From Deinococcales bacterium (lineage in GTDB: Bacteria > Deinococcota > Deinococci > Deinococcales > JAAFIG01): 29,572 bases of DNA. Numbering within the stretch: the stretch's first letter is position 1; each line of letters starts with the position of its first letter. The stretch is from assembly GCA_043778225.1 (NCBI GenBank), contig JAYWGM010000037.1, positions 1 through 29,572 of the forward strand, given 5' to 3'. Both the position numbers and the translations under genes were made by a program. A model generated the notes under the pieces. That model was not told the DNA's origin. It made no database searches and saw nothing but the letters and a program-made list of their open reading frames with translations. Positions 96-29,476 of this stretch are shown piece after piece.

Positions 96-890
96 TTACT
101 CAATCCGATACGTCGCATTGACAATCGCTCGGACATCTTTGTCTAAGCTGCTGGTGTCAAAATTGCCAACATCAGAAATACTTGGGTCGTTTTTGGCGTT
201 AATCTGGAAAACCCCTAAACGTCCTTCTTCAATCATTGTGATACGCCGACCAACTGGCTGGGCGATTAACTGCGCTCGCTTAAAAGCATCTTCAGAGGCG
301 GCTTTGACCAGTTCCAAACGCAATTCGGCTAATTTGGTGTAAATCAGGCTCAGGTTGGAGTTACCGATGAGAATATCTTGGTCAAAAAGCGCATCCACCG
401 CATTGCTGGCTTTGGTGACTACATCGACTTTGTTGCTCTCGACTGTAAAATACCTCGAGACTGTGTAGTAGGTTCTCGAGACGGTTTTATAGCGCAATGC
501 AATTTTATCTTTAACAATGGTTTTGCAGTCTATGTCGGTGATTGTACAATCTACTTCTTTGGTTTGGATTTCTGAGGTCACTTGCGAAGCCCAGACTTTA
601 ATTTCAGAAGCGTCAATTCCCTCTTTTTTAAGGTAAGTTTCAACGGCTTCTGGCACGGGTTTGAGTTTTAAGTACAACGATTTGTACTCATCGTACTTGG
701 AATAAGCCACACTAAACGACCAAACCGCCAAATCAGACCGAATGGTCTTGACGGCACTCCCCGTGACCGTTGTGGTATAGGTCTTGGCGCGTAAACTTTG
801 GATGCCACCAATGCCAATTAAAGCCAGAATAACCAAGGTAATACCAATCACCACAACACTCGCAAAGGCTTGCGGAAAAGATTTTGTCAT
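96..890 (-). CDS. SIMPL (DUF541/BP26-like) domain protein, membrane-anchored
   Basis: N-terminal hydrophobic helix; TVTGSA..I.SDLAVW start motif; C-terminal A..DA..RA..IA, GVFQI and DTSS.DK.VRA.V...Y motifs; GAGG RBS. Confidence 0.8.
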   Translation of the reverse strand: MTKSFPQAFASVVVIGITLVILALIGIGGIQSLRAKTYTTTVTGSAVKTIRSDLAVWSFSVAYSKYDEYKSLYLKLKPVPEAVETYLKKEGIDASEIKVWASQVTSEIQTKEVDCTITDIDCKTIVKDKIALRYKTVSRTYYTVSRYFTVESNKVDVVTKASNAVDALFDQDILIGNSNLSLIYTKLAELRLELVKAASEDAFKRAQLIAQPVGRRITMIEEGRLGVFQINAKNDPSISDVGNFDTSSLDKDVRAIVNATYRIE

Positions 891-1020
891 ACCTCAATCG
901 TACTGGCTTGCATGAGTTTTGCACTCATAAAGCAATCTAAATTGTGACTTATGGGCTAAATGCAAATCTTTCTCGAGAAATACAGAATTTTGGGGGTAAT
1001 TTGTGTCATCGGTGACTAGG

Positions 1021-1046
1021 AGGGTTAAGCAGGCTGTCTTGACCCT
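1021..1046. terminator. Hairpin downstream of radical SAM gene (possible terminator)
   Basis: AGGGTTAAG-caggctgt-CTTGACCCT inverted repeat with one non-canonical pair; no clear U-tract. Confidence 0.3.
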
Positions 1047-1121
1047 CTTGACCCCAAAGATAGCACCTGAGGAGCTTGGGTCGCTAAAGATGCACCTATC
1101 GGGCTGGGTCGCCTAACCCCT

Positions 1122-2642
1122 CTAGGCGTAAAACATCGGCGCGGCTGGTTTAATGATTTGCCCCGGTTGCTGCTCGTAGGTCACGGTGTTGCCAGCGAAC
1201 TCGTCTTTCCAGCCAATTTGCTCGAGGGCTTTGACCCACGCACCATAACTTTCGTTGTCTTTGACAAGGTATGCGGCTTTACCAATGCTCGAGTCACCAC
1301 GGGCAATGACCTGTTCCACCCATGCCCATTTTGCCGAGACATTGCGAAGCTCCAAATCTCGGCGCAGTTCTTTTTGAATCCGCTTAAAGCGTTTTTCAAT
1401 CACATCCACCCCAGCAAATGGGTCAGCATGGTGTGGCGTGTGGCGCTTTGGCACAAATGGCGAGATACCCATGGCGACTTTGGTGATGCTGGCAAGTTTT
1501 TTACTGAATTGGATTAACTCGGTTATATCGTCGTCGTTTTCGGGTGGTAAGCCAATCATCATATAGACTTTGAGGCTCGAGAAGCCCAATTTTTTAGAAA
1601 TATGGGCAGTGCGAAGTAAATCGGCTTCGGAAATGCCTTTTTTCATCCAGTCGCGCAAACGTTGGCTTGGGGCATCGGAGGCAACGGTAAAACTGCGTAA
1701 GCCACCATCGCGCAGAATTTGTGCCAGTTCTTCGTCTACCGTGTCAGCGCGGATACTCGAGACCCCAAGTTTGACACCGCGCTCGGTAAGTGTCCGCCCA
1801 ACATATTTGGTGTGCTTAAAGTCGGAAAGGGCTGCGCCCACCAAGCCAACTTTTTTGACCCAATCGGGGATACACGCCAACAAATCGTCGGCTTCGTTGT
1901 TGCGATTTGGTCCGTACATGGTTCGCGCCAAACAAAAGGTACAGGGGCGCGGACAGCCGCGTTGGGCTTCGACCAAGTACATATTGCTCAGTTCAGAATG
2001 TGGTGTCACAATCTGGCTGTAAGCTGGCAGCATTTCTTTAGGAGCAGTTGCCCAAAGTGGTTCGTGCTTCATGCTCCTCGGCAAATAAATTCCTGGGCGA
2101 CCCTCGAGGTCAGAAAAAAACTCGGCTCGAGAACTGGCTTCACGCCATGCCTCGGCAATGATTGGCACGATTAACTCGCCATCGCCAATACAGATAATAT
2201 CGGCAAAAGGCGAAACTGGGTACGGGTTACTCGAGGTCAGTGGACCGCCGACAATGATAATTGGGTCGGATTCATCGCGCTCTTCGCGCCAAGGGTTAAT
2301 GCCAGAACACTCGAGAAAACGGATGATGTTGGTCAGGTCGAGTTCAAAACTGACCGAAAGCGCCACCATATCGGCTTCTCCGACTGGATTTCCACTCTCG
2401 AGCATCGGCAGGGTTTCGCCAGTTTTTTGGAAGGCTTCAACATCATCGGGCAAAAAAGCCCGTTCGCAGCTAAAACCCTCTTCTTGGTTAAACATCCGAT
2501 AAATGACTTGATAACCAAGGCTTGCCATTCCGACCGAATAGCGATTGGGAAAGCCCAAGGCAACTCGAGTAGAAGCATGACGGCGAATTGTGCCGATTTC
2601 ATCATCTAAAAGTGGTTTTAAGTGTTTGCGCCAATAACTCAT
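1122..2642 (-). CDS. B12-binding-domain radical SAM protein
   Basis: CxxxCxxC in RGCPRPCTFC; N-terminal FPNRYSVGMASLG and GGP motifs; YMMIGLP and PFVPKRHTP; GGAG RBS. Confidence 0.9.
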   Translation of the reverse strand: MSYWRKHLKPLLDDEIGTIRRHASTRVALGFPNRYSVGMASLGYQVIYRMFNQEEGFSCERAFLPDDVEAFQKTGETLPMLESGNPVGEADMVALSVSFELDLTNIIRFLECSGINPWREERDESDPIIIVGGPLTSSNPYPVSPFADIICIGDGELIVPIIAEAWREASSRAEFFSDLEGRPGIYLPRSMKHEPLWATAPKEMLPAYSQIVTPHSELSNMYLVEAQRGCPRPCTFCLARTMYGPNRNNEADDLLACIPDWVKKVGLVGAALSDFKHTKYVGRTLTERGVKLGVSSIRADTVDEELAQILRDGGLRSFTVASDAPSQRLRDWMKKGISEADLLRTAHISKKLGFSSLKVYMMIGLPPENDDDITELIQFSKKLASITKVAMGISPFVPKRHTPHHADPFAGVDVIEKRFKRIQKELRRDLELRNVSAKWAWVEQVIARGDSSIGKAAYLVKDNESYGAWVKALEQIGWKDEFAGNTVTYEQQPGQIIKPAAPMFYA

Positions 2643-2726
2643 TCATCTCCAGTACAGCTTTAGAAGTCTAGCAGGACAAAACCAAAAGAAGACAGTACAT
2701 TTGTGCCAATAGGGTAGACTAGGCGC

Positions 2727-3560
2727 ATGGCAGGCAGAGGCATGATTGATACGATTTCACTCGAGGCACTGGTCTATTTGCTCGAGCATTTACCGCAAAC
2801 CCAAGCCTATTCGGATTGGATTCCGGGGGCGCTGCTTGATACGAGTCTGATTCAACGACTCGAGTCCGAGCAATTTACGGGCTATGCAGTCTTTGCTTTT
2901 GAAGATAATTGGCTTGGTGGAGTGCTTTTTTATCAAGGTCTTGCACTCGAGGCGTGGCGCAGGGCATTGGGTGGACTCGAGAACCGCAGCGAAGCGTACC
3001 GAAATTTATTGCCAATGCTCGAGTTTGCTGCCACGCGCTTTTTTGTGCTGCCGACCGAACTGATTCCAGCAGTCGTGGCATTAACCTTGTCCGAGCGGCT
3101 CGAAAGTTATCAAGCCCCCGAAGTCAATATCCCAGCCATGCTCGAGAAATTAGAAGCGCTTCGATTTTCGGGGCTGGTTATTTTTGAGCATCAAAAAATT
3201 GCTCAGGCATGGTTTTTTAAGGAAGGAGGGCGGCTTCTCGAGCCACCCTTACCCGAGTCCTTTGCGGTTGGCAGACTGCATTTATTGCATAACCCGAGCC
3301 AAATTCCGCAAGATGTGGTTGGTTTGGTGGCTCGAGAAGCCAACTTAGAACGCCTAGCCCAAGCCGATTTCTTGCGGGCAAACCTTGAAGCCTTATTGGT
3401 TAAGCACATTGGGGTCAATGCCAAAATGGTACTTGAGAACAACCAGCAACTGTTTTTGGAATCCGATCCAAACCGACTTGAGACTGCGATGCTCAATTGG
3501 CTCGAGGAAACCTATGGCTCGAGTCTGGTAGAAGAATTTCAAACAAGACTCAATCAGTAA
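2727..3560 (+). CDS. Hypothetical protein with DUF4388-like (FTGY/FSGLV) repeats and a C-terminal helical domain
   Basis: 277-aa ORF; two L...L....F[TS]G units; TAGACT 6 nt before ATG (leaderless). Confidence 0.7.
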   Translation: MAGRGMIDTISLEALVYLLEHLPQTQAYSDWIPGALLDTSLIQRLESEQFTGYAVFAFEDNWLGGVLFYQGLALEAWRRALGGLENRSEAYRNLLPMLEFAATRFFVLPTELIPAVVALTLSERLESYQAPEVNIPAMLEKLEALRFSGLVIFEHQKIAQAWFFKEGGRLLEPPLPESFAVGRLHLLHNPSQIPQDVVGLVAREANLERLAQADFLRANLEALLVKHIGVNAKMVLENNQQLFLESDPNRLETAMLNWLEETYGSSLVEEFQTRLNQ

Positions 3561-4378
3561 TCGATTGAACCAGAACCACGCAAGTTTTTAAGAACTTCAC
3601 GAATTGTACCTCGAGAAACCCGCAACTCTAAGCGGATTTGCTCGGCATTGCGCTGTCCATCTATTAAGTCAAAAACGGTTTTGTAAATTCCAGCCAGCCC
3701 CACCACCGAGCCACCGCGTCCAAAACTCGAGCGACGTTCGATTTTACTAGGAACAATCACCCCAAGTAAGGCTCGCATTTCAAAGGTATTGTTGACTTTA
3801 GCGGGTGGCTCAACGCCTTCAATTTCCATGACTTCTTGTGCCACCAACTCGAGCAAGGCTGAATCAATGCTGATGCCCTTAAAAACTTCACGCAGTTCTT
3901 TGACGGTTGTGCCAAACCGGGCTTTTTTAAGAATTTCAAGCTCGGGCGCACCCAAGGATTCATAAGCCGAGACATTGTTGCGGACTTTAATATGGGCTTC
4001 TGGGCGTAAGGTTTTTTCGCGCAAGTGTTCGTCCTCGAGCCGCGCTGCCTCCAAAAGTGTGCCTAAAATAGAACCGGTCATGTTTGGTTCAACCGTGATA
4101 AAACCCTCGAATAAGTTGGTATGGGCATAACGCCAGCGCAGCATGGTTCGCACCGCCTCTGTTCCCTCGAGCAGTTTGCCTTCGTGTTCGCAGAGCGCCC
4201 GAACCATTTTGCCTTGACGAATCACAAAATAGGCTCGAGCCTCGTCTGGGCTTTCGCACTCGAGGACACCGTTGTGTTGACTGGTGCTGAGGTATTCAAG
4301 AAAGGCTGGGAGCATCGGTTGCCGCAAGCGAGCGCTGAGAATTGGCGCATCTATATAATTGGGCTTCGGCAGGCTCAT
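3554..4378 (-). CDS. DUF4388 (PatA-N-like) domain protein with C-terminal wHTH
   Basis: LPAFLEYL...GVL...G.MVRA...G.EAV..ML.W and LLEAARLEDE signatures; DLIDGQRN..QIR tail. Start moved to MSLPKP at 4378 because TAGACT lies 7 nt upstream. Confidence 0.85.
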   Translation of the reverse strand: MSLPKPNYIDAPILSARLRQPMLPAFLEYLSTSQHNGVLECESPDEARAYFVIRQGKMVRALCEHEGKLLEGTEAVRTMLRWRYAHTNLFEGFITVEPNMTGSILGTLLEAARLEDEHLREKTLRPEAHIKVRNNVSAYESLGAPELEILKKARFGTTVKELREVFKGISIDSALLELVAQEVMEIEGVEPPAKVNNTFEMRALLGVIVPSKIERRSSFGRGGSVVGLAGIYKTVFDLIDGQRNAEQIRLELRVSRGTIREVLKNLRGSGSIDY

Positions 4379-4515
4379 TAAGGTCAGTCTATACGCAAAA
4401 GTGCAATCGCAGTGTGAAAAACGATAAAATATGCGCCATGACAAATCTGGCACTGCTCGAAGTTGGGGCAAAAATGGCTGTACCGAATTACTTACCACGT
4501 ATTGGAGGATAAAAT

Positions 4516-5128
4516 ATGGACGCACTTCCCCTGCTCGAGAAATTACAAGCTATTGCCAAACTTGGGCTGTATTACACCAAAGACATCTATGACCGTCAGC
4601 GCTACGAGCAACTGCTCGCGCTAACAGCCGAGTATTCATGGTCATGCCCTCGAGATGCCCGCGCCCAATGCTCGAGCTAACCTCGAAAGAGACCTTGGTA
4701 AACTTGGTGTCTCCCCTATTCTGGGTTCGGATGCCGCGATTTTTGACTCGAGCGGCAAAATTTTGCTGATGAAACGCACCGATAATCAAAAATGGTGTAT
4801 GCCTTGTGGTCTGGTCGAAGCTGGCGAATCCCCAGAGCAAGGCGCAATCCGCGAAGCCAAAGAAGAAACTGGTTTAGAAGTGCAGATTCTCGAGTTGGTC
4901 AAGGTTTATACGCGGTTTCCAAGTGCTGAATACGGGTTGTACACCTTGGTCAGTACGGTTTTTTTATGCGAGGTTATGGGTGGCGTGCTGACCCGTTCAC
5001 ACGAGGATTTAGGCTTGCAATACTGGAATCTCGAGGACGTTCCGATTTGGCATTCTGATATGCAGCAACACGCCCGTGATGCTCATGCAGTTTGGCTTAA
5101 TCGAATATCTGCTACACTAAATCCATGA
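4516..5128 (+). pseudogene. Nudix hydrolase with Nudix_N domain, split by a one-base insertion near 4636-4637
   Basis: GGAGG RBS and ATG 4516 give [34 protein letters not shown] (Nudix_N); the Nudix box (GLVEAGESPEQGAIREAKEETGL) is in the +1 frame. Confidence 0.75.
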
Positions 5129-5670
5129 TTGGCGAACTTAGCACCATGAGTGTTACGGAATACCTCGAGTTTGAAAAAACTTCTGAGGTACGTCATGAAT
5201 TTGTAGATGGAGTGTTGATACCAATGCCAGGAACAAGTCGGCAACATGGAAACATTGTTTTGAACATCGTAGAGATTCTGCGTCCAAAAGCCCGAGCTAA
5301 ACAATGCGAGTTACAAGCCATTGACATCAAAACGCCAACTCAGAACAGCCGTTATCGTTACCCTGATATTTTAATCAGTTGCAAGCCCAACAAAGATAAA
5401 TACATTCTCGAGAATCCTTGCTTGCTGATCGAAGTGGCATCTAATAGCACCGAACACACTGACCGAGGCTCAAAAGTAACCGAGTATCTAAAAATTCTGA
5501 GCCTAGAGACCTATGCCATCGTTGGACAAGATAAACCCGAAATTACCATTTACCGACGTGATGAAAAGGGTTGGCGGGTGGATATTCTCGAGAAAACAGG
5601 GGCTTTTTACATCCCGTGTTTAGATTCGCATTTATCATTAGAAGAAATTTATGCTGGTGTGGAATTATGA
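5125..5670 (+). CDS. Uma2-family (PD-(D/E)XK) endonuclease-like protein
   Basis: EYLEFE...RHEFVDG...M.G....H, YRYPD, P.LLIEV.S.ST...DRG.K..EY motifs; TACACT 6 nt before ATG. Confidence 0.9.
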   Translation: MIGELSTMSVTEYLEFEKTSEVRHEFVDGVLIPMPGTSRQHGNIVLNIVEILRPKARAKQCELQAIDIKTPTQNSRYRYPDILISCKPNKDKYILENPCLLIEVASNSTEHTDRGSKVTEYLKILSLETYAIVGQDKPEITIYRRDEKGWRVDILEKTGAFYIPCLDSHLSLEEIYAGVEL

Positions 5671-6170
5671 GGTTTTGGGTTAATCAGTTTTTGCAGCAGT
5701 GCAACTATTGCAATGATGAGTCCTAAACCAAGCGGTAAACCAATTAACGCCCCAATAATCCAACTTAAACGCCCAACTTCTGGGTTGGGTGGTACAAGTG
5801 CAAAGCGTCCTTCGGTTACGGATTGTCCGACCCCAAGGGTGTGCTGACCTTCCAGAATTTGCTGACCTACTTTGACTCGAGCAATCAGGTTATGTTCGCC
5901 TTGGGCTAAATTTAGGGTTGCCTTAAAAACACTTTTCTCGAGTTTCTGGGCTTGCACCCGCACGGTTCTGCCATCAATATCAATGACTTCAAGCTCGAGC
6001 GAGTCTATTGGAAAAGCCTTCGCACCAGTTGCATCTGACGCTCTGGCAATAAACACACCATCCTCTGGTTCAAATTCAAACTCGAGGATGGCTTGGCGCT
6101 GGGTTTGTGGTGCGGCGGGCTGGGCATAACTCAGGCTCGAGAACAGCAGGACAAAACAAAGAAACCACAT
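5649..6170 (-). CDS. Exported hypothetical protein with C-terminal membrane anchor
   Basis: Signal peptide (..SLSYA-Q), beta-rich core, C-terminal hydrophobic helix; TAGACT 6 nt before ATG. Confidence 0.7.
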   Translation of the reverse strand: MWFLCFVLLFSSLSYAQPAAPQTQRQAILEFEFEPEDGVFIARASDATGAKAFPIDSLELEVIDIDGRTVRVQAQKLEKSVFKATLNLAQGEHNLIARVKVGQQILEGQHTLGVGQSVTEGRFALVPPNPEVGRLSWIIGALIGLPLGLGLIIAIVALLQKLINPKPHNSTPA

Positions 6171-6208
6171 GGCTAGAGTCTAGGTTTTTTTGACTGGGAG
6201 AATGCCCC

Positions 6209-6268
6209 ATTGCATAAATTCTCGAGATATGTGTATAATTATGCAGGAATGTTGAATATCACCCGACG
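6209..6268 (+). promoter_or_regulatory. argG promoter with overlapping ArgR (ARG) boxes
   Basis: TTGCAT (6210-6215), 18 nt, TATAAT (6234-6239); good ARG box TGTGTATAATTATGCAGG at 6230-6247; half boxes at 6209 (ATTGCATAA) and 6251 (GTTGAATAT) in 21-bp register. Confidence 0.7.
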
Positions 6269-6278
6269 ACCTGCATAG
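6249..6278 (+). CDS. Putative leader peptide MLNITRRPA
   Basis: ATG 10 nt after TATAAT; tandem CGA CGA Arg codons; stop abuts a perfect hairpin; lies upstream of argG. Confidence 0.4.
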   Translation: MLNITRRPA

Positions 6279-6346
6279 CCTCGAGATTTGAAATCTCGAG
6301 GTACACCTGTGTGGCTTATGGTGGTTTATGCTAGGCGTGGAAAACT

Positions 6347-6370
6347 GGGCGAGGCACGCCTCTCCCCTAC
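6347..6370 (-). repeat. GTAG-type REP element
   Basis: Reverse strand reads GTAGGGGAGAGGCGTGCCTCGCCC; 21/24 identical to the REP at 8218-8241. Confidence 0.7.
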
Positions 6371-6390
6371 GGCTTTAAGGAGAAATTACA

Positions 6391-7590
6391 ATGTCAAAGA
6401 AAAAAGTGGTACTTGCCTACAGTGGCGGACTCGACACCAGCATGATTCTCAAATGGTTGCAGCTCGAGCGAGATTTAGATGTGGTGTGTTTTACCGCCGA
6501 TATAGGACAAGGCGAAGAAGTCGAGGAGGCTCGAGTTAAGGCACTCAATACTGGCGCGGTGGCAGCTTATGCTTTAGACTTGCGCGAAGAATTTGTGCGC
6601 GATTTTGTATTCCCCATGCAACGCTCGAGCGCCCTCTACGAAGGCTATTATTTACTTGGCACAAGCATTGCCCGCCCGTTAATCGCCAAGCACCTTGTGG
6701 AAATTGCTTTTCGGGAAAATGCTGAAGCCATTTCGCATGGCGCAACCGGCAAAGGCAACGACCAAGTGCGTTTTGAGGTCAGTGCGTATGCCCTCAATCC
6801 AGAAATAAAAATTATTGCCCCATGGCGCGAATGGGGTCCAGCCGGACGCAAAGAACTGATGGAATTTGCCGCCAAGCACAACATTCCCGTACCAGTCAGT
6901 GCCGCCAAACCCTACAGCGTGGACTCGAATTTGTTGCACAACAGCTTTGAAGGCGGGATTCTCGAAGACCCTTGGGCAGAACCGCCACACGGAATGCTGA
7001 AACTGACCAAGCCAATCGAAGAAACACCAAACACACCTGAATATGTCGAAATCGAATTTGTTGGCGGCGACCCAATTGCGATTAACGGCGAGAAATTTTC
7101 GCCCGCCGCAATGCTCGAGAAAGCCAATCAGATTGCTGGGAATCACGGCATTGGCGTGGTAGATTTGGTCGAGAACCGCTTTGTCGGCATGAAATCTCGA
7201 GGCGTGTACGAAACTCCGGGCGGCACGTTGTTGTATCACTCGAGACGCGCTGTTGAAAGCATTACCCTAGACCGCGAAGTGCTGCACACCCGCGACAGTA
7301 TGCAGCCCAAATACGCTGAACTGGTTTATAACGGCTTTTGGTTCACTGCCGAACGCGAAGCCATGCAGGTCTACTTTGACCATGTAGCCAAGGGCGTAAC
7401 TGGCATTGCCCGAATGAAAATGTTGAAGGGACAAGCTACGGTGGTTGGACGCAAATCACCATTATCGTTATACGACCCAACGCTGGTGACATTTGAAAAA
7501 GAAACGGTGTACGACCAAGCCGATGCTGGCGGATTTATCAAGCTCAATGCTCTACGCGCTCGAGTCCGCGCACGGTTGCAACGAGATTAA
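6391..7590 (+). CDS. argG: Argininosuccinate synthase
   Basis: [51 protein letters not shown]. Confidence 0.99.
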
Positions 7591-7623
7591 CCACAATTCA
7601 TCAAAAAGGAGTACCATGACCAC

Positions 7624-7821
7624 ATGACCGCCTTGCCTAGAGAAGCCAAACAACGGCAACACGAAACCATGCCTGAACCAAGCGACTTTGAGTTTGAGGC
7701 AGCTAAACTCAAAGCAGTCAAAACAGGACTCGAGGAAATCAAAAACAATAAAAATCCTGTTTGGCTTTCCGCTTCCGATATGGACGTTTGGTTTGATGCA
7801 CAACGCCAGCCCGTTAAGTAA
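7624..7821 (+). CDS. Small protein, probable antitoxin
   Basis: 65 aa with acidic/aromatic tail; overlaps the start of a RelE-like toxin remnant. Confidence 0.5.
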   Translation: MTALPREAKQRQHETMPEPSDFEFEAAKLKAVKTGLEEIKNNKNPVWLSASDMDVWFDAQRQPVK

Positions 7822-8162
7822 ATTTAGCGAATCATGGCAAAAAGCCCAAGCACTTTTTGGCAAAGACAACCATGCTCGAGTCGCACTCGAAGAAGCCCTC
7901 AAAGAAGTCTTAACAGCCCTGCGTTCCGACCCTAACCTAGGCAAAATAGAACCGAATGCAATTACCACAAGGTATTGAATTTCGTAAGCAAAAATTCAAA
8001 TCAGGATTTGGAGCGCTCGGACAGTGGTGACTGCTGTACTTTTGGGACACGAACAAGCAAATTATTTACTGGTCATGGTTGTACTCGCATAAGCAGTACC
8101 CAATACGTCCGACTCGAGAAGAATTAACACAAAACATAGAAGCAGGACTCGAGGAAATATGA
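7796..8162 (+). pseudogene. RelE/ParE-like toxin pseudogene
   Basis: MHNASPLSKFSESWQK...LRSDPNLGKIEP, frameshift near 7950-7956, then MQLPQGIEFRKQKFKSGFGALGQW*LLYFWD...WLYSHKQYPIRP; in-frame TGA at 8028-8030 where a G.xR(L/I)Y arginine is expected. Confidence 0.65.
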
Positions 8163-8177
8163 AAACACAATTGGTTA

Positions 8178-8241
8178 CAGGGCAGACACGGGGGTCTGCC
8201 CCTACAAACCCCAAACCGTAGGGGCGGGGCTTGCCTCGCCC
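8178..8241. repeat. Inverted pair of GTAG-type REP elements (REPIN-like doublet)
   Basis: 8178-8205 (- strand GTAGGGGCAGACCCCCGTGTCTGCCCTG) and 8218-8241 (+ strand GTAGGGGCGGGGCTTGCCTCGCCC), each GTAG plus a GC-rich hairpin, 12-nt spacer. Confidence 0.8.
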
Positions 8242-8336
8242 AACCCGCCAAAGGCAAACGCATATGCCAAAGAAAAAAGTTATTTCAATGCTCGAGTTTA
8301 CAAAAATTTCAAATTTCAAAAACGTTGAGGTCTGGA

Positions 8337-8864
8337 ATGAATAACTATTTTATTTATCATCGGAAAAGTAAAAATTTTGAGGGTGATACAATCTATCCAT
8401 TAAATCGTTTGCCTTTCCCTGAAATAAAAATACAAGAACAAAAAAAATATCAGGGACGTGAAGCACTGCTTGCAGTTACCATCCCACCATTGAACTGCTT
8501 ATGGAATGACGTAATTCACTGTTCACCTGTCCATCCTAATGAAGTCTACTCTGCTTTGAAAGAAGCTGGTTTTGAGCCACCTGCTGGGCAATACTTTGCA
8601 ATACCAGCGACTACTTTACAACCAGCACAAACTACAATTTTTTTATCATCAGCCAGACCAAATGACCGTTATGCAGCCGAAAATTATTTGCCATTTCTTT
8701 TAGAAAATCTTCATTTACACCAGCACTTACCCGAAGAAACCAAGACTTATTATGCGACTTGTAAATCTGAAGGGCGGAATCCTTTAATTTATGTTGGTGT
8801 ACCACACATTCTGCATTTTGGTCATATCCTCGTAAACGATTGTGAATTAATTGACATAACCTAA
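8337..8864 (+). CDS. Conserved-looking hypothetical protein (YPLN...KKY.GRE...CLWNDV.H.SP.HP)
   Basis: GAGG RBS before ATG 8337; AT-rich; contains no CTCGAG. Confidence 0.75.
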   Translation: MNNYFIYHRKSKNFEGDTIYPLNRLPFPEIKIQEQKKYQGREALLAVTIPPLNCLWNDVIHCSPVHPNEVYSALKEAGFEPPAGQYFAIPATTLQPAQTTIFLSSARPNDRYAAENYLPFLLENLHLHQHLPEETKTYYATCKSEGRNPLIYVGVPHILHFGHILVNDCELIDIT

Positions 8865-8925
8865 CAATTCAGCCCAACCACCAATTCTGACTTAACCTCG
8901 AGCAACCAATAAGAAACTAAACTGT

Positions 8926-9324
8926 ATGCCCAAACTAACCACTAAAATCCGAATTGCCCGTCCTACCAATAACCTCGAGAAAATCGTGCATTTTTATTGT
9001 GATGGACTTGGTTTTGAAATCATTGCTGGTTTTGAAGATCACAATGGTTTTGATGGTGTGATGCTTGGCTTACAAGATGCTATATACCATCTCGAGTTCA
9101 CGCATCATCGAGGTCATGTTGTGCCTGACGCTCCAACGCAGGATAATCTGCTTATTTTTTACTTGCCAGACCAAGTAGCTTGGCTCGAGGCAACCCAGCG
9201 AATGCAGCAGCAAGGCTTAAAGCCTGTAAAATCTTATAATCCCTATTGGGATGTGCATGGCAAGACTTTTCAAGACCCTGATGGTTACAGGGTTGTACTG
9301 CAAAATGCCGAGTGGTCTATATGA
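8926..9324 (+). CDS. VOC/glyoxalase family protein (YycE-like)
   Basis: RIARPT..L.....FY..GLG, H.GFDGVMLG, HLEFT, NPYW...G.TF.DPDGYRVVLQN. Confidence 0.92.
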   Translation: MPKLTTKIRIARPTNNLEKIVHFYCDGLGFEIIAGFEDHNGFDGVMLGLQDAIYHLEFTHHRGHVVPDAPTQDNLLIFYLPDQVAWLEATQRMQQQGLKPVKSYNPYWDVHGKTFQDPDGYRVVLQNAEWSI

Positions 9325-9475
9325 AGATTAAACAGCGAGATTTGAGTCATTTAGCTGGCACTTGGAGCGACGAGGAAGCCCGAGAATTTGAACGTAACAC
9401 TGCCTATTTTTCTGCTTTACCGCAAGATACTAACCCCCAATTTTGGCTTGACCTCGAGCAGATGTTTTCTCGAGT
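9321..9475 (+). pseudogene. Chimeric remnant: antitoxin C-terminus fused to a copy of the pyrophosphatase-like gene 5' end
   Basis: KQRDLSHLAGTWS matches the antitoxin at 9634-9672; NPQFWLDLEQ matches the gene start at 10163-10192. Confidence 0.75.
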
Positions 9476-9519
9476 TTTCTCAACAAATTTTAACTACAAT
9501 GACTGTAGAGGTGAACATC

Positions 9520-9738
9520 ATGACTTTAGAAATTAGTGGTACAACTCAGAATTTGCTTTTTGCCGAAGCTGAACGGCAACACACTAACCCAGAACTGTTG
9601 GCTCGTCGTTTGCTGCGTTTAAGTTTACTAACCAAACAACGCGATTTAAGTCATTTAGCTGGAACATGGTCTGAAGAGAAATATCAAGCATTTGAAGAAA
9701 GTGTTGCTTCATTGCAAGAAGTTGTTGAGGAAGATTAG
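9520..9738 (+). CDS. Antitoxin of the VapC module
   Basis: GAGGTG RBS; DLSHLAGTWS.E....FE tail typical of PIN-toxin partners; stop overlaps the vapC GTG start. Confidence 0.8.
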   Translation: MTLEISGTTQNLLFAEAERQHTNPELLARRLLRLSLLTKQRDLSHLAGTWSEEKYQAFEESVASLQEVVEED

Positions 9739-10154
9739 TGCCAAAGGTTTTACTAGATACAAACACGTATTCCTTATTCAAACGAAATAAGTCTGAGGAT
9801 GCCAAAAAAATTCTTGAATTTTCAGAAGAGATTGGTTTGCCTAGTGTTGTCATTGCTGAACTGTACGCTGGCTTTTTTGATGGTACTCAATTCACTGAAA
9901 ACGAATCGGAATTAGAGATTTTTCTGAGCGAATTAAATGTTTCTATAATTAGAATTTCTGATACAACACTGCGGATTTTTGGTGAACAAAAAACAGAACT
10001 TAAACGTATTGGCATTACCGTACCTCACAATGATTTGTGGATTGCATCCTTAGCCATTGAGCATGACTTCGTGGTGTATTCCTTGGATAAACATTTAAGA
10101 ATGATTCCTTCGATAACAGTTATTCAATCTTTTATGGAGTTTTTAGACTTATGA
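9738..10154 (+). CDS. vapC: PIN-domain VapC toxin
   Basis: LLDTN, V.AEL..G, P.NDLWIA..A.E, S.D.H acidic PIN motifs. Confidence 0.93.
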   Translation: MPKVLLDTNTYSLFKRNKSEDAKKILEFSEEIGLPSVVIAELYAGFFDGTQFTENESELEIFLSELNVSIIRISDTTLRIFGEQKTELKRIGITVPHNDLWIASLAIEHDFVVYSLDKHLRMIPSITVIQSFMEFLDL

Positions 10155-10504
10155 CTTTACCCAACCCCCAATTCTGGCTTGACCTCGAGCAACTTGTTTC
10201 CTCGAGTACCTTGCTTATTGATCGTCCGAAAGGCTCGAGCCACCCGCGTTATGCCGATTTAATTTATCCTTTTGATTATGGTGAACTCGAGGGTACAAGC
10301 GGTGGTGATGGTGCTGGCATTGATGTTTGGGTTGGATCGCTCGAGAAAACTGTTACGGGCGTTCTTGCCACGGTAGATACAGTTAAACGAGATTCGGAAA
10401 CCAAAATATTATTGGGTTGCTCGAGTCTCGAGATGATGCAGATTCGGGATTGGTATAACAACGTTGCTAAGGTGCAGTGTTTGTTACTCGAGAGGAGTTT
10501 ATGA
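10151..10504 (+). CDS. Short inorganic pyrophosphatase-like protein
   Basis: IDRPKGS.HP, YP.DYG.L.GT...DG..IDV and D.E.K motifs. Confidence 0.85.
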   Translation: MTLPNPQFWLDLEQLVSSSTLLIDRPKGSSHPRYADLIYPFDYGELEGTSGGDGAGIDVWVGSLEKTVTGVLATVDTVKRDSETKILLGCSSLEMMQIRDWYNNVAKVQCLLLERSL

Positions 10505-11525: not shown

Positions 11526-11773
11526 AAAAAGAATCGCCACAAACCCTAGGAATTGCACTGGTGATTGGTTGTGTGATGAGCATTTACTTTGCAATTGATT
11601 TTCTTAGAAACTATCAGGCATTTCAATTGCAACAAGTTATTTCACTTGGCAGACGCGGACGAGTCGGTATTCCCACAACCTTTGATGTGACCTTCAAAGG
11701 ATTATTTGTACTGGTAGGCATTGCTCTTGTGTCTTACATTATTTTTCGACTCATCAAAGGCAGTTCTAAATGA
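11522..11773 (+). CDS. Small two-TM membrane protein
   Basis: Two hydrophobic helices; ATGA-coupled at both ends. Confidence 0.65.
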   Translation: MKKESPQTLGIALVIGCVMSIYFAIDFLRNYQAFQLQQVISLGRRGRVGIPTTFDVTFKGLFVLVGIALVSYIIFRLIKGSSK

Positions 11774-12559: not shown

Positions 12560-13948
12560 ATGTCAGCGACCAATAAAAAACCGTGGGGTGGGCGTTTTGA
12601 ATCCGAAACCAGCAAACTCGTCGAGGCTTTTAATGCCAGTGTGGATTTCGATAAACGACTGGTTCTCGAGGATATTGCGGGTTCTACGGCACACGTCAGA
12701 ATGCTTGGTGCAGTTGGTATTCTCGAGCCAGACGAAGTGACCCAGATTCTTGAGGGATTGGAAAAAGTGCTGCTCGAGGTTGAAGCTGGTACGTTCCCGT
12801 GGCGCATCGAACTCGAGGATGTGCATATGAACGTTGAAACACGTCTCAAAGAGTTGATTGGAGCAACGGCTGGGAAGTTGCACACCGCCCGAAGCCGTAA
12901 CGACCAGGTGGCACTGGATTTTAGGCTCTGGGTCAAAAAAGCCAGCCTTCGCACCGCCCAGAAACTCGAGACGCTCAGGGATACCATGCTGTCCGAAGCT
13001 GAGCGCAATTTTGGCATTGTCATGCCGGGCTACACGCATTTACAGGTCGCGCAACCGATTCTGGTTTCGCATTGGTTTATGGCGTACTTTGAAATGTTCA
13101 GCCGTGACATTTCAAGATTTTACGATGCGGCTAACCGCATGAACGAATCGCCGCTCGGGGCTGGAGCATTGGCTGGAACACCATGGCAAATTGACCGCTT
13201 TCAGACTGCTACCGAACTTGGTTTTGCCGCACCAACCCGCAATAGCTTGGATTCTGTAGGCTCGAGAGATTTTGCGCTCGAGTATCTGAGTGCAGCCAGC
13301 ATTTGTATGGCAACCCTAAGCCGAATCTCGGAAGAACTGATTCTCTACTCGAGTTTTGAATTTGGATTTGTCACCTTGCCAGACTCGCACACCACGGGCA
13401 GCAGCATCATGCCGCAAAAGAAAAATCCTGATGTGGCAGAACTGGCTCGGGGCAAAGCTGGTCGGGTTTTTGGGGATTTAATGGCGCTTTTAACGGTCGT
13501 TAAAGGCACACCACTGGCGTACAATAAGGATTTCCAAGAAGACAAAGAACCCGTTTTTGATGCCGCCGACACCTTAGAAGCGATTCTCGAGTTATACGCC
13601 GATATGCTGCCCCTCTGCACTTGGAATGCCGCCACTACCGAAATTGCTGCCGCTCAAGGCTACAGCACCGCCACAGACCTCGCTGACTACCTCGCACGGC
13701 AAGGCGTACCATTCCGTGAAGCCCATGAAGTGGTTGGAAAATTGGTTGGGTTGTGCGTCAAAACCAATCGGCACTTGTGGCAACTCGAGGAAACCGAACT
13801 CAAAACCGCTCATGAATTGCTGGATGCTCGAGCGCTCGAGGTTGTGACTGTACAAGCCAGTGTGGCTGCCCGAACCAGTTATGGTGGAACAGCCCCAATT
13901 CGCGTTCAAGAAGCCATAAACGCTGCCAGAAAACAAATTCAGTCCTAG
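12560..13948 (+). CDS. argH: Argininosuccinate lyase
   Basis: WGGRF, EDVH, LHTARSRNDQV, MPGYTHLQ, GSSIMPQKKNPD, YNKDFQEDKE. Confidence 0.99.
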   Translation: MSATNKKPWGGRFESETSKLVEAFNASVDFDKRLVLEDIAGSTAHVRMLGAVGILEPDEVTQILEGLEKVLLEVEAGTFPWRIELEDVHMNVETRLKELIGATAGKLHTARSRNDQVALDFRLWVKKASLRTAQKLETLRDTMLSEAERNFGIVMPGYTHLQVAQPILVSHWFMAYFEMFSRDISRFYDAANRMNESPLGAGALAGTPWQIDRFQTATELGFAAPTRNSLDSVGSRDFALEYLSAASICMATLSRISEELILYSSFEFGFVTLPDSHTTGSSIMPQKKNPDVAELARGKAGRVFGDLMALLTVVKGTPLAYNKDFQEDKEPVFDAADTLEAILELYADMLPLCTWNAATTEIAAAQGYSTATDLADYLARQGVPFREAHEVVGKLVGLCVKTNRHLWQLEETELKTAHELLDARALEVVTVQASVAARTSYGGTAPIRVQEAINAARKQIQS

Positions 13949-17800: not shown

Positions 17801-17812
17801 TATTGGTGAAAT

Positions 17813-18766: not shown

Positions 18767-18769
18767 TTT

Positions 18770-19657
18770 ATGGACATATTTTTTAGCACCTATGGTTTTT
18801 TGATCGTTCAGATGATGCTTCAGGCATTGCTGGGCTTATCGTTGTACTTCCCGATGATGGCGGGTCAACTTTCCTTAGCCAGCCCCGGATTTTATGCGCT
18901 CGGTGGGTATATTGCTGCTGTTATCTCGACCAAGGTTTTTGTCACCCAAGGGCAGTACCCTATTCCAATGCTGTTGCTCGAGATTGTGCTTGGCGCACTG
19001 GCAAGTGGCGTATTGGCATTGGTGGTAGGCATTCCAGCCCTGCGTTTGCGCGGTATTTACTTGGCGCTTGCCACGATTGCGTTTGTCGAAATTCTGCGGG
19101 TCGTTTCGCTTAATCTTGACATTACGGGTGGCGCAGTCGGTATTTTTGGTATTCCACAGCCGTTTACCAACTCACTCAGTTATGCCTATTTGGTGTTGCC
19201 GTTGTTGGTTTTGGTGGCATGGTTCGCTTCACGGCTCGAACGTTCTCGAGTTGGTAGGGCATTAACTGCCATCCGCGAAGACGAATTGGCTGCCGACGCG
19301 ATGGGCATTAACCCGACCTACTATAAAGTCTTGGCATTTGTGATTGGCGCGATGGTGGCGGGTGGGATTGGCGCAATCTCGGCGCATTTTTTGAACACCT
19401 GGAACGCTCGACAAGGCACATTTGATGCCGCAATTAACATTTTAGCCTATGTGCTGATTGGTGGCTCGAGAACTTTTTGGGGCGCAATTGTTGGCGGCTT
19501 TGCCCTGACTGCCTTGCCCGAAATCCTGCGTCCATTGGGCGACTTACGCCTCATTGTCAATGGCTTGCTGCTGGTGATTGGTGCAATTTACTTGCCTCAA
19601 GGCTTAATCCGCCCAGCATGGCTGGCTGGTTTGGCTCGACTCAAGAGGAAATCATGA
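18770..19657 (+). CDS. livM: HAAT ABC permease
   Basis: GQLSL...F..G.Y; LRLRG.YLA.AT; GRA..AIREDE.AA..MGI. Confidence 0.95.
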   Translation: MDIFFSTYGFLIVQMMLQALLGLSLYFPMMAGQLSLASPGFYALGGYIAAVISTKVFVTQGQYPIPMLLLEIVLGALASGVLALVVGIPALRLRGIYLALATIAFVEILRVVSLNLDITGGAVGIFGIPQPFTNSLSYAYLVLPLLVLVAWFASRLERSRVGRALTAIREDELAADAMGINPTYYKVLAFVIGAMVAGGIGAISAHFLNTWNARQGTFDAAINILAYVLIGGSRTFWGAIVGGFALTALPEILRPLGDLRLIVNGLLLVIGAIYLPQGLIRPAWLAGLARLKRKS

Positions 19658-20445
19658 ACACGATTCTCGAATTGCCGAAGAACACGATTCTCGAGGTCGA
19701 AAACTTTACCCGCCGCTTTGGTGGCTTGGTGGCGGTCAACGAAGTCTGTTTTGCCGTACAACACAATGAAATTTTTGGCTTGATTGGACCCAACGGGGCT
19801 GGTAAAACCACCACTTTTAACATGATGACTGGTTTAACCCCACCCTCGAGTGGCAAACTGATGTATTTGGGTAAGGACATCACCAACTTAAAGCCGTATC
19901 AGATTGCCCAACTTGGCATGGCGCGAACCTTTCAGAACATTCGCTTATTTGGCAATCTCACTGCCCTCGAGAACGTCAAAATTGGGCAGCATATTCACAG
20001 CAGCAGTGGTGTCTTCAATGGCGTGTTTGGCATTGGCAAAAGTAAAGCCGAAGAAAAACAGATTCTCGAGAAAGCCAAACAACTGCTCGAACTTGTTGGG
20101 CTGCACGACCGCGCCCAAGTCGAAGCCAGAAATTTTAGCTACGGCGACCAGCGTCGGCTTGAGATTGCTCGGGCTTTGGCACTCGAACCCAAGGTTTTGC
20201 TGCTTGATGAACCCGCCGCCGGTATGAACCCCAACGAAAAGGCGGCTTTGTCGGATTTTATTAGGGCGGTGCGCGAAAAATTCAAGTTGACTGTGGTCTT
20301 AATCGAGCATCATGTGCCTTTGGTCATGGGACTCTGCGACCGAATCGCGGTGCTTAACTTTGGACAACGGATTGCGCTGGGGACACCTGCCGAAGTTGCC
20401 AACGACCCGGCAGTCATTGAAGCCTATTTGGGAGGTGATGATTAG
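19654..20445 (+). CDS. livG: HAAT ABC ATPase
   Basis: FGGLVAV, GPNGAGKTT, RTFQNIRLF, SYGDQRRLEIARAL, LLDEPAAG; ATGA-coupled start at 19654. Confidence 0.96.
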   Translation: MNTILELPKNTILEVENFTRRFGGLVAVNEVCFAVQHNEIFGLIGPNGAGKTTTFNMMTGLTPPSSGKLMYLGKDITNLKPYQIAQLGMARTFQNIRLFGNLTALENVKIGQHIHSSSGVFNGVFGIGKSKAEEKQILEKAKQLLELVGLHDRAQVEARNFSYGDQRRLEIARALALEPKVLLLDEPAAGMNPNEKAALSDFIRAVREKFKLTVVLIEHHVPLVMGLCDRIAVLNFGQRIALGTPAEVANDPAVIEAYLGGDD

Positions 20446-22569: not shown

Positions 22570-22899
22570 ATGGATTTTTCTGAGGCAGTACAGAAAATAG
22601 CAGTTGCCTTAAATCCGCAGCAGATTATTTTGTTTGGCTCGAGAGCGCGAGGCGATTTTAAGCCAGATTCGGATTATGATTTACTGATTGTCGTAGATGA
22701 TTCTATGACTGAAAATACCTTAAAGCTGGCTGGTCGCGCCCACAATGCTGTTGGAGATCGGCGTTTTTCCCTAGATGTTGTGGTGTATCGTCGTCGAGAT
22801 TTTGAAACGAGTTTACAAGACCAGTCGGATGTCGTTTGTTACGCCATAGAAGATGGAAAGGTTCTTTATGAAAGAGAAAGCTCGAAAGTGGCTGCGTAG
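22570..22899 (+). CDS. Minimal nucleotidyltransferase (MNT) antitoxin
   Basis: IILFGSRARGD...DSDYDLL; G.VLYE; TAAAAT 6 nt before ATG. Confidence 0.92.
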   Translation: MDFSEAVQKIAVALNPQQIILFGSRARGDFKPDSDYDLLIVVDDSMTENTLKLAGRAHNAVGDRRFSLDVVVYRRRDFETSLQDQSDVVCYAIEDGKVLYERESSKVAA

Positions 22900-23242
22900 A
22901 GCCGAAGAGGATTTATTGGCTTTATCCCAGTTGGCTCCGATTCAAACACCCGATGTTGTGGGAATGCTTTGTCAACAAGCAGTCGAGAAGCTGTTGAAAG
23001 CCTGTTGGATTGAGTTGGGCTGGCGTATTCCTTTAACGCATGATTTACGAACTCTCTGGTCTGATTTACAAATGCATTTTGACTTCAAGATTGAATCCCA
23101 GAGACTTGGCGACCTGACCCCTTATGGAACTCGAGCAAGGTATCCAGATTTTGAAATTGATCCTCCAGATGCTTTGGAAGCTGTCGAATTTACACTCGAG
23201 ACCTGTGCAAAATTAAAACTTTGGCTCGAGTCGCGTGAGTAG
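22868..23242 (+). CDS. HEPN-domain protein
   Basis: W...A.EDL, QQAVEK.LKA, THDL, RYP; overlaps the MNT gene. Confidence 0.92.
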   Translation: MKEKARKWLRRAEEDLLALSQLAPIQTPDVVGMLCQQAVEKLLKACWIELGWRIPLTHDLRTLWSDLQMHFDFKIESQRLGDLTPYGTRARYPDFEIDPPDALEAVEFTLETCAKLKLWLESRE

Positions 23243-27661: not shown

Positions 27662-28930
27662 TTATTTAATTTTTTTAACTTCTTGGGCAAACAACAAGAG
27701 GTCGAGTCTGCCATAGCCAATTGCTTTCTTATAGTTAGGATTAATTTTTTCAATATCGCGTGATTTCTCTTTGACTGCTTTTCCTAGTTTACGAATGTCG
27801 CTGTAGGTACGTTCGGCTAATGCCAATGCCAAGCTGGCACTGACCATTGGAGTTGCCATTGAAGTTCCACTCCAAGCTGCCACTCGATTATCTGGGGCTG
27901 GAGCATAAATCAATTCGCCAGGAGCGGACATCCCAACATCATCTCTGCCATAGCTCGAGAAGCTCGAAAGTTGGTCGGTTTTACCAACACTGGTAACACT
28001 GATTGCCATATCGCCCCAACGACCATTTTTACCATCCCGTCCACAAGCTCGAGCAGGAAAATTGACGTTTTGATCACCATTGTTACCACTGGCTGTGACC
28101 ACAAAAATACCTTTACGGGTGGCGTTATCAAGTGCCAAAGCAACCGCTTCTGAAGCAAATGTGCCAAGCGAAAGGTTAATAACTTTTGCGCCTTTTTGCA
28201 CCGCCCAGTTGATGGCTGCAATCACATCATCGCTGTCGCCAATGCCATTTTTATCAAGTACACGCAACGGCATGATTTGGGCTTTTTCGGCAATCTGAGC
28301 AATGATGCCAGCAATGTTTGTACCGTGTCCATAAGCCTCACCTAAAACTTCTTGTGGAATAGCATCGTTGTCCACAAAATCATAGCGTTCGGTTGGTGCA
28401 ACTAGACGGGTTGCAAAAGCAGGGTGATTTAAGTCAATTCCAGTGTCAATCACAGCAATTTTAATACCCAAGCCGAGTTTTGGAAAAGCAACTCGAGCAT
28501 CAGCCAGCTTAATTTGATCCCAAACCGCCTGATTTTGACCAGTTCCAAAAATCGAGCCTTGCCCAGAACCCCAAGTCGCCCATCCAGAACCCCAAGTTGC
28601 CCAACCAGAACCCCAAGTTGCCCAGCCACTCGAGTCAACTGGCATTCCAAGTGCAGCAGCCGCTTTACGGGTCTCGAGGACTCGTATTGACCCAACATTG
28701 GGTTGTGAACTTTGCAGATATAATTGACTATCGGCAGCTTGTCCGATAATCGCTTTGCCAAGTTCTGGATACCATGCAACCAGCCTCGAGCCGTACATTT
28801 CTGGAGTATCACCCGAATTTATTTCGATGGCTGTTAAAGAATCAAATTTAGTTTGAGGTTGTGGCTGGTTAACGCAACCAAGCAGTCCTAGGCTTAGCGT
28901 TAAAAATCCCGTAATTGTTTGTTTTTGCAT
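27662..28930 (-). CDS. Lipoprotein subtilase (S8) with three SGWATWG repeats
   Basis: Lipobox LLGC; triad motifs VIDTG, HGT, GTSMATP; oxyanion SGN; GGAG RBS. Confidence 0.95.
   Translation of the reverse strand: MQKQTITGFLTLSLGLLGCVNQPQPQTKFDSLTAIEINSGDTPEMYGSRLVAWYPELGKAIIGQAADSQLYLQSSQPNVGSIRVLETRKAAAALGMPVDSSGWATWGSGWATWGSGWATWGSGQGSIFGTGQNQAVWDQIKLADARVAFPKLGLGIKIAVIDTGIDLNHPAFATRLVAPTERYDFVDNDAIPQEVLGEAYGHGTNIAGIIAQIAEKAQIMPLRVLDKNGIGDSDDVIAAINWAVQKGAKVINLSLGTFASEAVALALDNATRKGIFVVTASGNNGDQNVNFPARACGRDGKNGRWGDMAISVTSVGKTDQLSSFSSYGRDDVGMSAPGELIYAPAPDNRVAAWSGTSMATPMVSASLALALAERTYSDIRKLGKAVKEKSRDIEKINPNYKKAIGYGRLDLLLFAQEVKKIK
28563..28625 (-). repeat. 3 x 21-bp coding tandem repeat (WATWGSG)
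   Basis: CCAGAACCCCAAGT(C/T)GCCCA(T/A/G) three times; differences fall mainly at synonymous positions. Confidence 0.95.
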
Positions 28931-29186
28931 TGCTTTTCTCCCTGATGGTATGAATAACTAATCTCTACTCTAATGTTAGTCTATTTAATCTTGGCATACA
29001 ATCTTATTATTACATTGCTTCAATCTTGATATACCTCCGAAAAGATATGTGCTACAAGCGATTTGAACCAAAATACCAAGTGGCTTTATATTAATTTCGT
29101 ACAACACTCTTACGGAATCCTTACAAGCCTGAGCCAAGGATTTTACAAAGCTAGAATCCACACATGACTTTGTGTAGACTGTTTTC

Positions 29187-29393
29187 ATGGCAACAAATTT
29201 ACATTTAGATGAAGCTCTGGTGCGCGAAGTTCTCGAGGTCTCGGGCAAACGCACCAAGCGCGAGGCTGTGACCGAAGCCCTTTCGGAGTATTTGCAGCGC
29301 AAAAAGCAACTTAAAATCCTCGAGTTTTTTGGCACAATGGAATTCCACGACGATTGGGATTATAAACGCCAACGCGGTAAAGGTTATTGTTGA
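29187..29393 (+). CDS. vapB: VapB-family antitoxin
   Basis: MATNL.LD..L......G..TKRE.V..AL.EY...DYK; TAGACT 6 nt before ATG. Confidence 0.88.
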   Translation: MATNLHLDEALVREVLEVSGKRTKREAVTEALSEYLQRKKQLKILEFFGTMEFHDDWDYKRQRGKGYC

Positions 29394-29476
29394 CACTGAT
29401 GTCTGGTCGGAGTCGTTACGCAAGAAAAAAGGTATTGCTTCAGAAGCCGTTTTACAACTCGAGGAACTGATTCGGG
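29377..29476 (+). pseudogene. vapC: Truncated vapC (PIN N-terminus only)
   Basis: VKVIVDTDVWS..LR; GTA stands where a GTG start is expected; similarity stops at the IS end. Confidence 0.75.

Follow-up and report, generated by a model that had tools for sequence, protein, structure and literature searches.

The window analysed here is a stretch of 29,572 nucleotides from a Deinococcales bacterium (contig JAYWGM010000037.1, positions 1 to 29,572), and its 31 called genes include argG, which encodes argininosuccinate synthase (6391..7590, + strand), and argH, which encodes argininosuccinate lyase (12560..13948, + strand). Throughout the window the palindromic hexamer CTCGAG is repeated. Exactly 187 dispersed copies were located in 454..29463, with no strand and with mixed flanks, the first at 454 and the last at 29458-29463; the gaps between them average 156 bp and reach 715 bp at most. 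Seven of these sites lie in argG and 12 in argH, in keeping with a preliminary description that had placed the word in conserved genes. Mononucleotide shuffles of the window (n=200) contained a mean of 6.0 copies and a maximum of 12, an excess of approximately 31-fold; about 187 copies and a 25- to 35-fold excess had been estimated beforehand, and both figures hold. By codon frame the sites number 90, 32 and 39, with 26 outside the called genes, and the 161 coding copies compare with 17 after synonymous-codon shuffles.

The assembly that holds the window (G000; other Deinococcales genomes are given other G-numbers, with g for genus and f for family) comprises 4,029,277 bases in 107 contigs, the longest of 154 kb, at 48.7% GC. 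It contains 24,877 CTCGAG sites, about 6.2/kb (6,170 per Mb), at a density of 4.0-10.6/kb on every one of the 107 contigs. The observed/expected ratio (O/E) is 26.7, 47.5 and 15.1 under models of order 0, order 1 and order 2 (Markov), and approximately 73 when the order-2 model is trained on site-masked sequence. The genome-wide comparison proposed in the preliminary description thus gives ratios of 15-47, and with all 107 contigs and all 19 family genomes enriched the word is not confined to one contig. No longer consensus was found around CTCGAG, as at maximal order its 8-mer extensions stay below an O/E of 1. Within the set of 16 flank combinations in this genome, CCTCGAGG is depleted to 0.30 of expectation. 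Site-free stretches longer than 1.1 kb number 53, the longest being 5.6 kb. The genome has low-GC islands that carry no CTCGAG, and around a 16S primer match on contig C27 (probably the 16S rRNA gene) there is only 1 site in 1.7 kb.

To these data were added contigs from two sequencing runs of one study, X1 and X2, of which X1 may be the source of the assembly; a third run, X3, was left out, since it holds only 6% of the words. The contigs match most of positions 1-20000 of the window with zero differing letters. In the bacterium's own family, all 19 genomes carry 4.3-6.8 CTCGAG/kb, which agrees with the earlier suggestion of a lineage-wide word resembling HIP1, the highly iterated palindrome of cyanobacteria. 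Because identical contigs were recovered from two runs and the same excess is present in 18 other family genomes, the excess is not an assembly artefact.

Codon frames and protein sequence

Codon use was analysed on the 3,342 called genes of G000. The sites fall into the three frames as 12,959, 4,283 and 4,402, with a further 3,265 between genes, and their density is 5.6/kb in intergenic DNA compared with 6.3/kb in coding DNA. The codon pair CTC GAG encodes 12,959 of the 18,690 Leu-Glu pairs (69%), against 2.1% predicted from codon use elsewhere, and in the other two frames the word fills 56% and 43% of the places that permit it. Genome-wide synonymous shuffles leave about 2,300 of the 21,644 observed coding sites. 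Neither a preference for gene starts or ends nor a peak at starts or stops was found in this genome.

A preference for certain codons or amino acids, a plain mutation bias or an artefact of assembly would be the simplest cause of such an excess. Leu-Glu is the top dipeptide of G000 (O/E 2.31), Leu-Glu dicodons make up 60% of the coding sites, and a dicodon-preserving null takes up most of the excess. This null keeps frame-0 sites by definition; in frame 1 (4283 vs 2607, 1.6-fold) and frame 2 (4402 vs 2134, 2.1-fold) the sites exceed the dicodon Markov model, so that the dicodon check named in the preliminary description is passed in part only. Outside the Leu-Glu pair, moreover, CTC and GAG are minority codons, and the sites have a similar density in all frames and in intergenic DNA. 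The intergenic density, together with the spacing effect described below and its flat control, refutes this explanation, which we consider hardly credible. As had been claimed, codon bias alone cannot produce an excess that extends to all frames and to intergenic DNA and that far surpasses the synonymous shuffles.

The word also reaches the protein level. In an alignment of argH from 18 family orthologues, CTCGAG occupies 33 distinct positions. Two sites are kept in all 18 genes, one at a Leu-Glu pair (12965..12970, alignment column 405) and one at 13277..13282 (column 732). The site at 12773..12778 (column 213) is private to G000 (1 of 18), giving Leu-Glu where the relatives mostly have Lys/Asn/Gly/Glu-Glu. 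At 13784..13789 (column 1239) the site is present in the 8 genomes of the same genus, which encode Leu-Glu, while the other 10 encode Leu-Thr; here CTCGAG has altered the protein sequence. Whole clades carry Leu-Glu in place of Leu-Thr, Leu-Gln and other pairs. The search for substitutions that create CTCGAG in orthologues, as set out in the preliminary description, thus reveals clade-wide changes to Leu-Glu, and the word is actively acquired and retained despite the amino-acid changes that this entails.

Distribution, turnover and spacing of the sites

Among 301 genomes of the order, with densities read by eye, CTCGAG ranges from 0 to 6.8/kb. Genera g13, g22 and g24 of family f5 have 1.4-3.5/kb, a range that also covers genus g11, and several f2 genera reach 2-2.8/kb. 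Genus g9 lies mostly at 0.7-1.1/kb, close to the reversed-word control, and all 86 genomes of genus g7 are below 0.3/kb. Within family f3, G285 has 3.6/kb; in contrast, G289 and G283 have no CTCGAG in 20 kb, and 37 and 109 copies genome-wide (L361-L364). Masked O/E values, measured on samples of 20-80 kb, are 62 for G011, 23 for G013, 11 for G285, 8.7 for G042 and 7.1 for G025, then 1.9-3.5 for G086, G019, G031 and G021, and 0 for G289 and G283. The ratio in Meiothermus silvanus is 3.9 over 50 kb, and a plasmid of this species carries 599 CTCGAG compared with 99 GAGCTC. The enrichment is therefore graded over the order and extreme in the family of G000. In 40 kb of the g9 genome G086 (L367-L368), TCGA is avoided (O/E 0.08) except inside CTCGAG (1.9), and given this avoidance outside the word a preference for CTCGAG may persist in g9 too.

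The turnover of sites was estimated from alignments of five g5 genomes with G011 (37-48 kb each) and of six g1 genomes with G003 (14-56 kb), to which two-state models were fitted at synonymous positions, with rates expressed relative to background. In g5, gain by transitions was raised 4.75-fold (gene bootstrap 3.5-6.8) and loss was reduced to 0.205 of background (0.15-0.28), over 72 genes of six genomes whose pairs are not independent; three independent pairs gave 4.56 and 0.21. Three close g1 genomes (26 genes) gave 3.3 and 0.18, the pair G003-G004 gave 4.6 and 0.36, and the pair G003-G000 gave 4.0 and 0.23. Taken together, transitions destroy CTCGAG at 0.18-0.23 of the background rate (0.36 for G003-G004) and transversions at 0.04-0.06; gain rates for transversions are poorly determined, with intervals that reach infinity. 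A parsimony count points in the same direction (17 gains vs 4.7 expected, 136 losses vs 422 expected), and was set aside in favour of the pairwise estimate because of its unanimity filter and an ancestral context bias (GGCC control 0.3).

Creation alone would raise gain and protection alone would slow loss; since both rates are shifted, the data indicate a fixation bias and not one-way creation. Per site, this bias amounts to roughly e^3 to e^5, and it acts in every frame and in intergenic DNA. A bias S of 3-3.5 predicts a gain of 3.2-3.6 and a loss of 0.11-0.16 times background, and this strength is what selection or biased conversion would give. Genome-wide odds of the word over its synonymous one-mismatch neighbours are 17-37 for transitions and 63-248 for transversions, to which context effects may contribute a part; the bias is seen at every position of CTCGAG, transversion neighbours being rarer than transition neighbours. 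The preliminary description had proposed an activity that converts near-sites into sites. Its core survives, as gains run about 4-fold above background, although one-way conversion is too simple for losses that are likewise slowed about 5-fold.

The sites are not placed independently of each other. In G000, gaps under 20 bp occur at 0.3-0.5 of expectation and gaps of 60-200 bp in slight excess, and the occupancy of Leu-Glu pairs is about 0.33 when another site lies no more than 12 bp away, compared with 0.85 when the nearest is over 200 bp off. A logistic fit covered 27,320 places at which the encoded protein permits CTCGAG, and assigned each neighbouring site a log-odds shift of -1.49 at 7-12 bp, then -1.06, -0.59, -0.38, -0.24 and -0.13 with growing distance, -0.10 at 121-200 bp, -0.03 at 201-350 bp and about 0 beyond, with a control codon choice that stayed flat. 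Site pairs 7-20 bp apart number 25 vs 67 expected in G011 and 10 vs 27 in G003. Within the family, the benefit of a site is thus local and saturating: a second site is devalued strongly at distances up to about 30 bp and faintly out to 200 bp. An exponential (25-30 bp), a 1/distance and a two-exponential curve describe the effect about as well as each other, the two-exponential one coming first, and for this reason its shape names no mechanism; the short range could reflect a footprint of the protein combined with sliding, or else a short tract of repair.

One possible source of such a pattern is selection for a genome-wide coat, in which a nucleoid, protective or self-recognition protein would sit every 100-200 bp, and cells with well-spaced sites, like invaders mimicking such cells, would be fitter. 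The gain and loss pattern fits this equally well, and so do the diminishing returns together with the slight excess of 60-200 bp gaps. Transition neighbours are 4-5 times less depleted than transversion neighbours, as expected for graded binding. Selection and chromosome structure have also been proposed for HIP1 (PMC5861425). On the other hand, no helical-scale period was found among the top periods of site spacing in G000, the genome tolerates its islands of up to 5.6 kb without a site, and the order spans the full range of densities down to 0. We regard the coat as unlikely on balance.

Methyltransferases, foreign DNA and competence

The preliminary description had named an orphan methyltransferase as a possible cause. 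Across family genomes that are 57-94% complete, neither of the two families known from cultured relatives to act on the word was found: the PaeR7I/XhoI-like methyltransferase, which 16 of the 301 order genomes carry (6 of 26 in g13), and the TaqI-like methyltransferase, carried by 35 of 301, both occur in 0 of 19. The TaqI-like query is identical to a Marinithermus protein and probably corresponds to a published Marinithermus locus tag. About 20 methyltransferase matches over four Pfam families were obtained in G000, many of them in low-GC cassettes; most have no assigned specificity, and the names of ten yielded none. Within these four families, no methyltransferase is common to G000, G006, G009, G010, G011 and the single-contig G013, and the only five matches in G013 have no orthologue in G000. 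A conserved orphan enzyme is accordingly not upheld. The TaqI-like family occurs in 32 of 32 g9 genomes, whose CTCGAG density is near the control, and was not found in the enriched family, where the XhoI nuclease (PF04555) is likewise found in 0 of 19 genomes (7 of 301 in the order).

These results bear on the methylation-directed repair ratchet (the Elhai model), according to which interchangeable methyltransferases would mark sites and the site-bearing strand would win mismatch resolution. The model, as set out in section 3.4 of PMC4390886, predicts that sites are gained more quickly and lost more slowly, with saturation in the vicinity of those already there. Tables S3/S4 of PMC4752239 list active orphan N6-methyladenine (m6A) methyltransferases with CTCGAG as target for three cultured relatives, Marinithermus hydrothermalis, Meiothermus chliarophilus and M. 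ruber. The order contains at least two families of such enzymes that are unrelated to each other. MutS- and MutL-like motifs were found in G000 by regular expressions, and among its methyltransferases without assigned specificity non-orthologous enzymes acting on CTCGAG are possible, as elsewhere in the family. The distribution of the known enzymes speaks against the ratchet, however, as does synonymous divergence, in which nearness to a site makes a difference of no more than 15%, and in opposite directions in g5 and g1; Vsr was found in 0 of 19 family genomes (5 of 61 relatives). We therefore consider the ratchet improbable. Methylation looks like an optional companion of the word, which perhaps protects many sites from XhoI-type nucleases.

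Two other candidates were rejected. An 824-aa protein picked by motif as a methyltransferase in 19 of 19 family genomes is instead a secreted protein of HEXXH/PD40 type (C52:18576-21050; L111:4577-7051); it has no Pfam match, is found in 0 of 6 sampled f3 genomes and has a paralogue on C101. The second candidate, a beta-class methyltransferase whose neighbours are XhoI-family nucleases, lacks an orthologue in G000. Plasmid neighbours link the L102 methyltransferase family to HaeIII-family nucleases. In G031, with 2 CTCGAG/kb, an XhoI-family nuclease is split over two frames next to an intact PaeR7I-like methyltransferase (L031:1408-2040), and on contig C101 of G000 the gene after a DIPY-type methyltransferase belongs to the carbon-nitrogen hydrolase family and is not a recognisable nuclease (L002:1441-3302).

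Foreign DNA was sampled through a type I-E array of clustered regularly interspaced short palindromic repeats (CRISPR), which has 44 repeats at a contig end (C80:16-2691; L511:16-2691) with cas1 and cas3 adjoining. CTCGAG is present in 10 of its 43 spacers (8.4/kb), where about 0.3 would be expected by chance and about 7 at host density; the avoided hexamers described below occur in 0 of the same spacers vs about 9 expected. The foreign DNA recorded by CRISPR thus carries the word at host density. None of the 43 spacers matches elsewhere in the assembly, and one consists of a short tandem repeat. Viral contigs were scanned with three patterns, and the stretches listed (at least 126 for the first, then 9 and 8) included no phage of the family and no spacer match. 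Annotated phages gave no spacer match either, and of 20 loci recovered from metagenomes through Cas1, none is CTCGAG-rich in the manner of the family.

Among the other palindromic hexamers, 32 of 63 have O/E below 0.1 in G000, and GGCC has 131 copies in 4 Mb. This avoidance reaches the proteins, with Trp-Pro at O/E 0.10 and Gly-Pro at 0.34. Avoided palindromes and patchy restriction-modification genes are what would be expected under heavy DNA exchange. ComEC was found in 18 of 19 family genomes, as an open reading frame (ORF) of 771 aa in G000, together with one plausible pilin in a regular-expression search for pilin N-termini.

Cause of the excess and related systems

The explanation that we favour, tentatively and at somewhat less than an even chance, is that a host DNA-binding protein gives DNA with sites an advantage when it is exchanged or recombined. 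A host protein, and not a conserved methyltransferase, would recognise CTCGAG in double-stranded DNA. The bound protein would most likely protect the DNA or route it into recombination during exchange or repair, and a stretch bearing the word would be transmitted more frequently than its counterpart lacking it. The advantage would lie in transmission drive, not in cell fitness. We favour drive because the word is indifferent to gene position and protein, because it stands at host density in spacers, because ComEC is present in 18 of 19 genomes and 32 of 63 palindromes are nearly absent, and because HIP1 has been linked to competence: its abundance follows pilus and competence genes, not methyltransferases (PMC13756078). 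In addition, the M. silvanus plasmid is CTCGAG-rich while the methylome of this species has five motifs, none of them CTCGAG (PMC4752239, table S4).

Several observations weigh against a transmission drive. Profile searches with the TaqI- and PaeR7I-like target-recognition domains and the XhoI nuclease found nothing in the 17,288 ORFs of G000, and no reader protein was found, just as no responsible enzyme had been seen in the window. Drive and selection cannot be told apart by substitution rates. The saturation scale, tens of bases, falls short of the kilobase fragments of DNA uptake. The spacing deficit is weak in G013 (7 vs 11.5 expected) and is not seen in G285, G025 and G042 (16 close pairs vs 16.1 expected), which belong to other families with lower densities, and retention rises with distance in g5 (0.75 to 0.86) and not steadily in g1. 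The spacers may derive from temperate elements or strain-specific chromosomal DNA. Outside the family, enrichment and the avoidance of restriction sites do not go together: in samples of 40 kb, G285, G025 and G042 are enriched 7-11-fold with 0-2 avoided palindromes, and G019 avoids 18 of 54 palindromes with only 2.5-fold enrichment. ComEC is as common in genus g7, which is poor in the word (11 of 11 genomes sampled), so that its presence is not discriminating. The excess in M. silvanus is modest, and single-molecule real-time (SMRT) data miss 5-methylcytosine (m5C).

A further reading, possible though rather doubtful, is that Deinococcales carry a methylation-independent self-mark. A new sequence-specific protein would read CTCGAG in its unmodified form; DNA in which a site recurs every 100-200 bp would enjoy protection or preferential recombination, with enough force to reshape the proteome and make phages and plasmids copy the mark. 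Given culturable members on both sides of the range of 0 to 6.8/kb, comparison could reveal such a protein, and the self-mark, if true, would also bear on why HIP1 exists.

Like HIP1 (GCGATCGC) and the alternative cyanobacterial HIPs, CTCGAG is a short palindrome that is hyper-abundant genome-wide, within and between genes (PMC4390886, PMC5861425 and PMC13756078), in all frames and at an O/E (15-73 by model) within the 15-300-fold range of HIPs. Both are conserved beyond neutral expectation, here through reduced loss rates, and the function of HIP1 is unsettled, with proposed links to transformation, repair and chromosome structure. CTCGAG works like HIP1 but is not HIP1, from which it differs in word, phylum and methyltransferase. 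The word is neither GCGATCGC nor a derivative with a GATC/CGATCG core, and these cores are scarce in G000 (CGATCG, 182 copies, O/E 0.29 at order 1; GATC, O/E 0.20); there is no flanking extension, no conserved cognate methyltransferase was found, and saturation was measured at 10-200 bp. Traits of the cyanobacterial HIPs also include conserved orphan methyltransferases for the word, a periodicity of 10-90 kb along the chromosome and a gain in transformation efficiency. The density of HIP1 is 300-2,700 per Mb in table 2 of PMC4390886, compared with 6,170 per Mb here.

Other known systems share single features with the word. The orphan CTCGAG enzymes of the same order (M.Mhy14884I, M.Mch9957IV and M.Mru1279II) and of Nocardia have the same target; the TaqI-like and PaeR7I-like families were not found in the family of G000. 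In its accessible part, PMC4752239 reports methylation and, for Nocardia, a CTCGAG cluster near dnaA, not a genome-wide excess. Of an XhoI/PaeR7I restriction-modification system, neither the nuclease nor the methyltransferase was found in the 19 family genomes. DNA uptake sequences, as in Neisseria and Pasteurellaceae, are 9-10 bp, non-palindromic and spaced at about 1 per kb, with a known receptor in Neisseria, and they accumulate by biased transmission, overriding codon choice and amino acids. CTCGAG overrides both as well, in a family with competence genes, and is unlike them in being 6 bp, palindromic and present at six per kb. Very-short-patch repair (Dcm/Vsr) acts on one T:G mismatch and enriches a methyltransferase site at the expense of near-sites; in contrast, the CTCGAG bias affects every position and type of change, transversions more strongly, with no restriction to T-to-C change at one position.

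No published report of the CTCGAG excess was found in the literature searched, most subscription papers being outside its reach, and the searched text of PMC4390886 has 0 matches for CTCGAG, Deinococcus or Thermus; supplements of bioRxiv 10.1101/2024.04.29.591623 may list M. ruber motifs. The purpose of a single genome-filling short palindrome has been open for thirty years in the case of HIP1. CTCGAG provides a second case from another phylum, at more than 2 times the highest HIP1 density in table 2 of PMC4390886, with measurable gain and loss rates, a saturation length scale and no conserved methyltransferase found. As the order holds word-rich and word-poor lineages, some of them cultured, comparing gene content offers a way to map the cause and then to test it, G285 and G289/G283 within f3 being one such contrast. 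Combined with the avoided palindromes, the word is a strong signature for binning genomes of the family and for assigning mobile elements.

As to the window itself, the closest ArgH with a name (76%) belongs to a 'Deinococcales bacterium', and proteins of the order relatives bear Meiothermus and Marinithermus names. No tRNA genes were found in the window. The interval 7590-12560 between argG and argH holds small ORFs, among them one for a VapC-like toxin as well as Nudix/GNAT genes, and an MntA/HEPN pair is located at 22570-23242.

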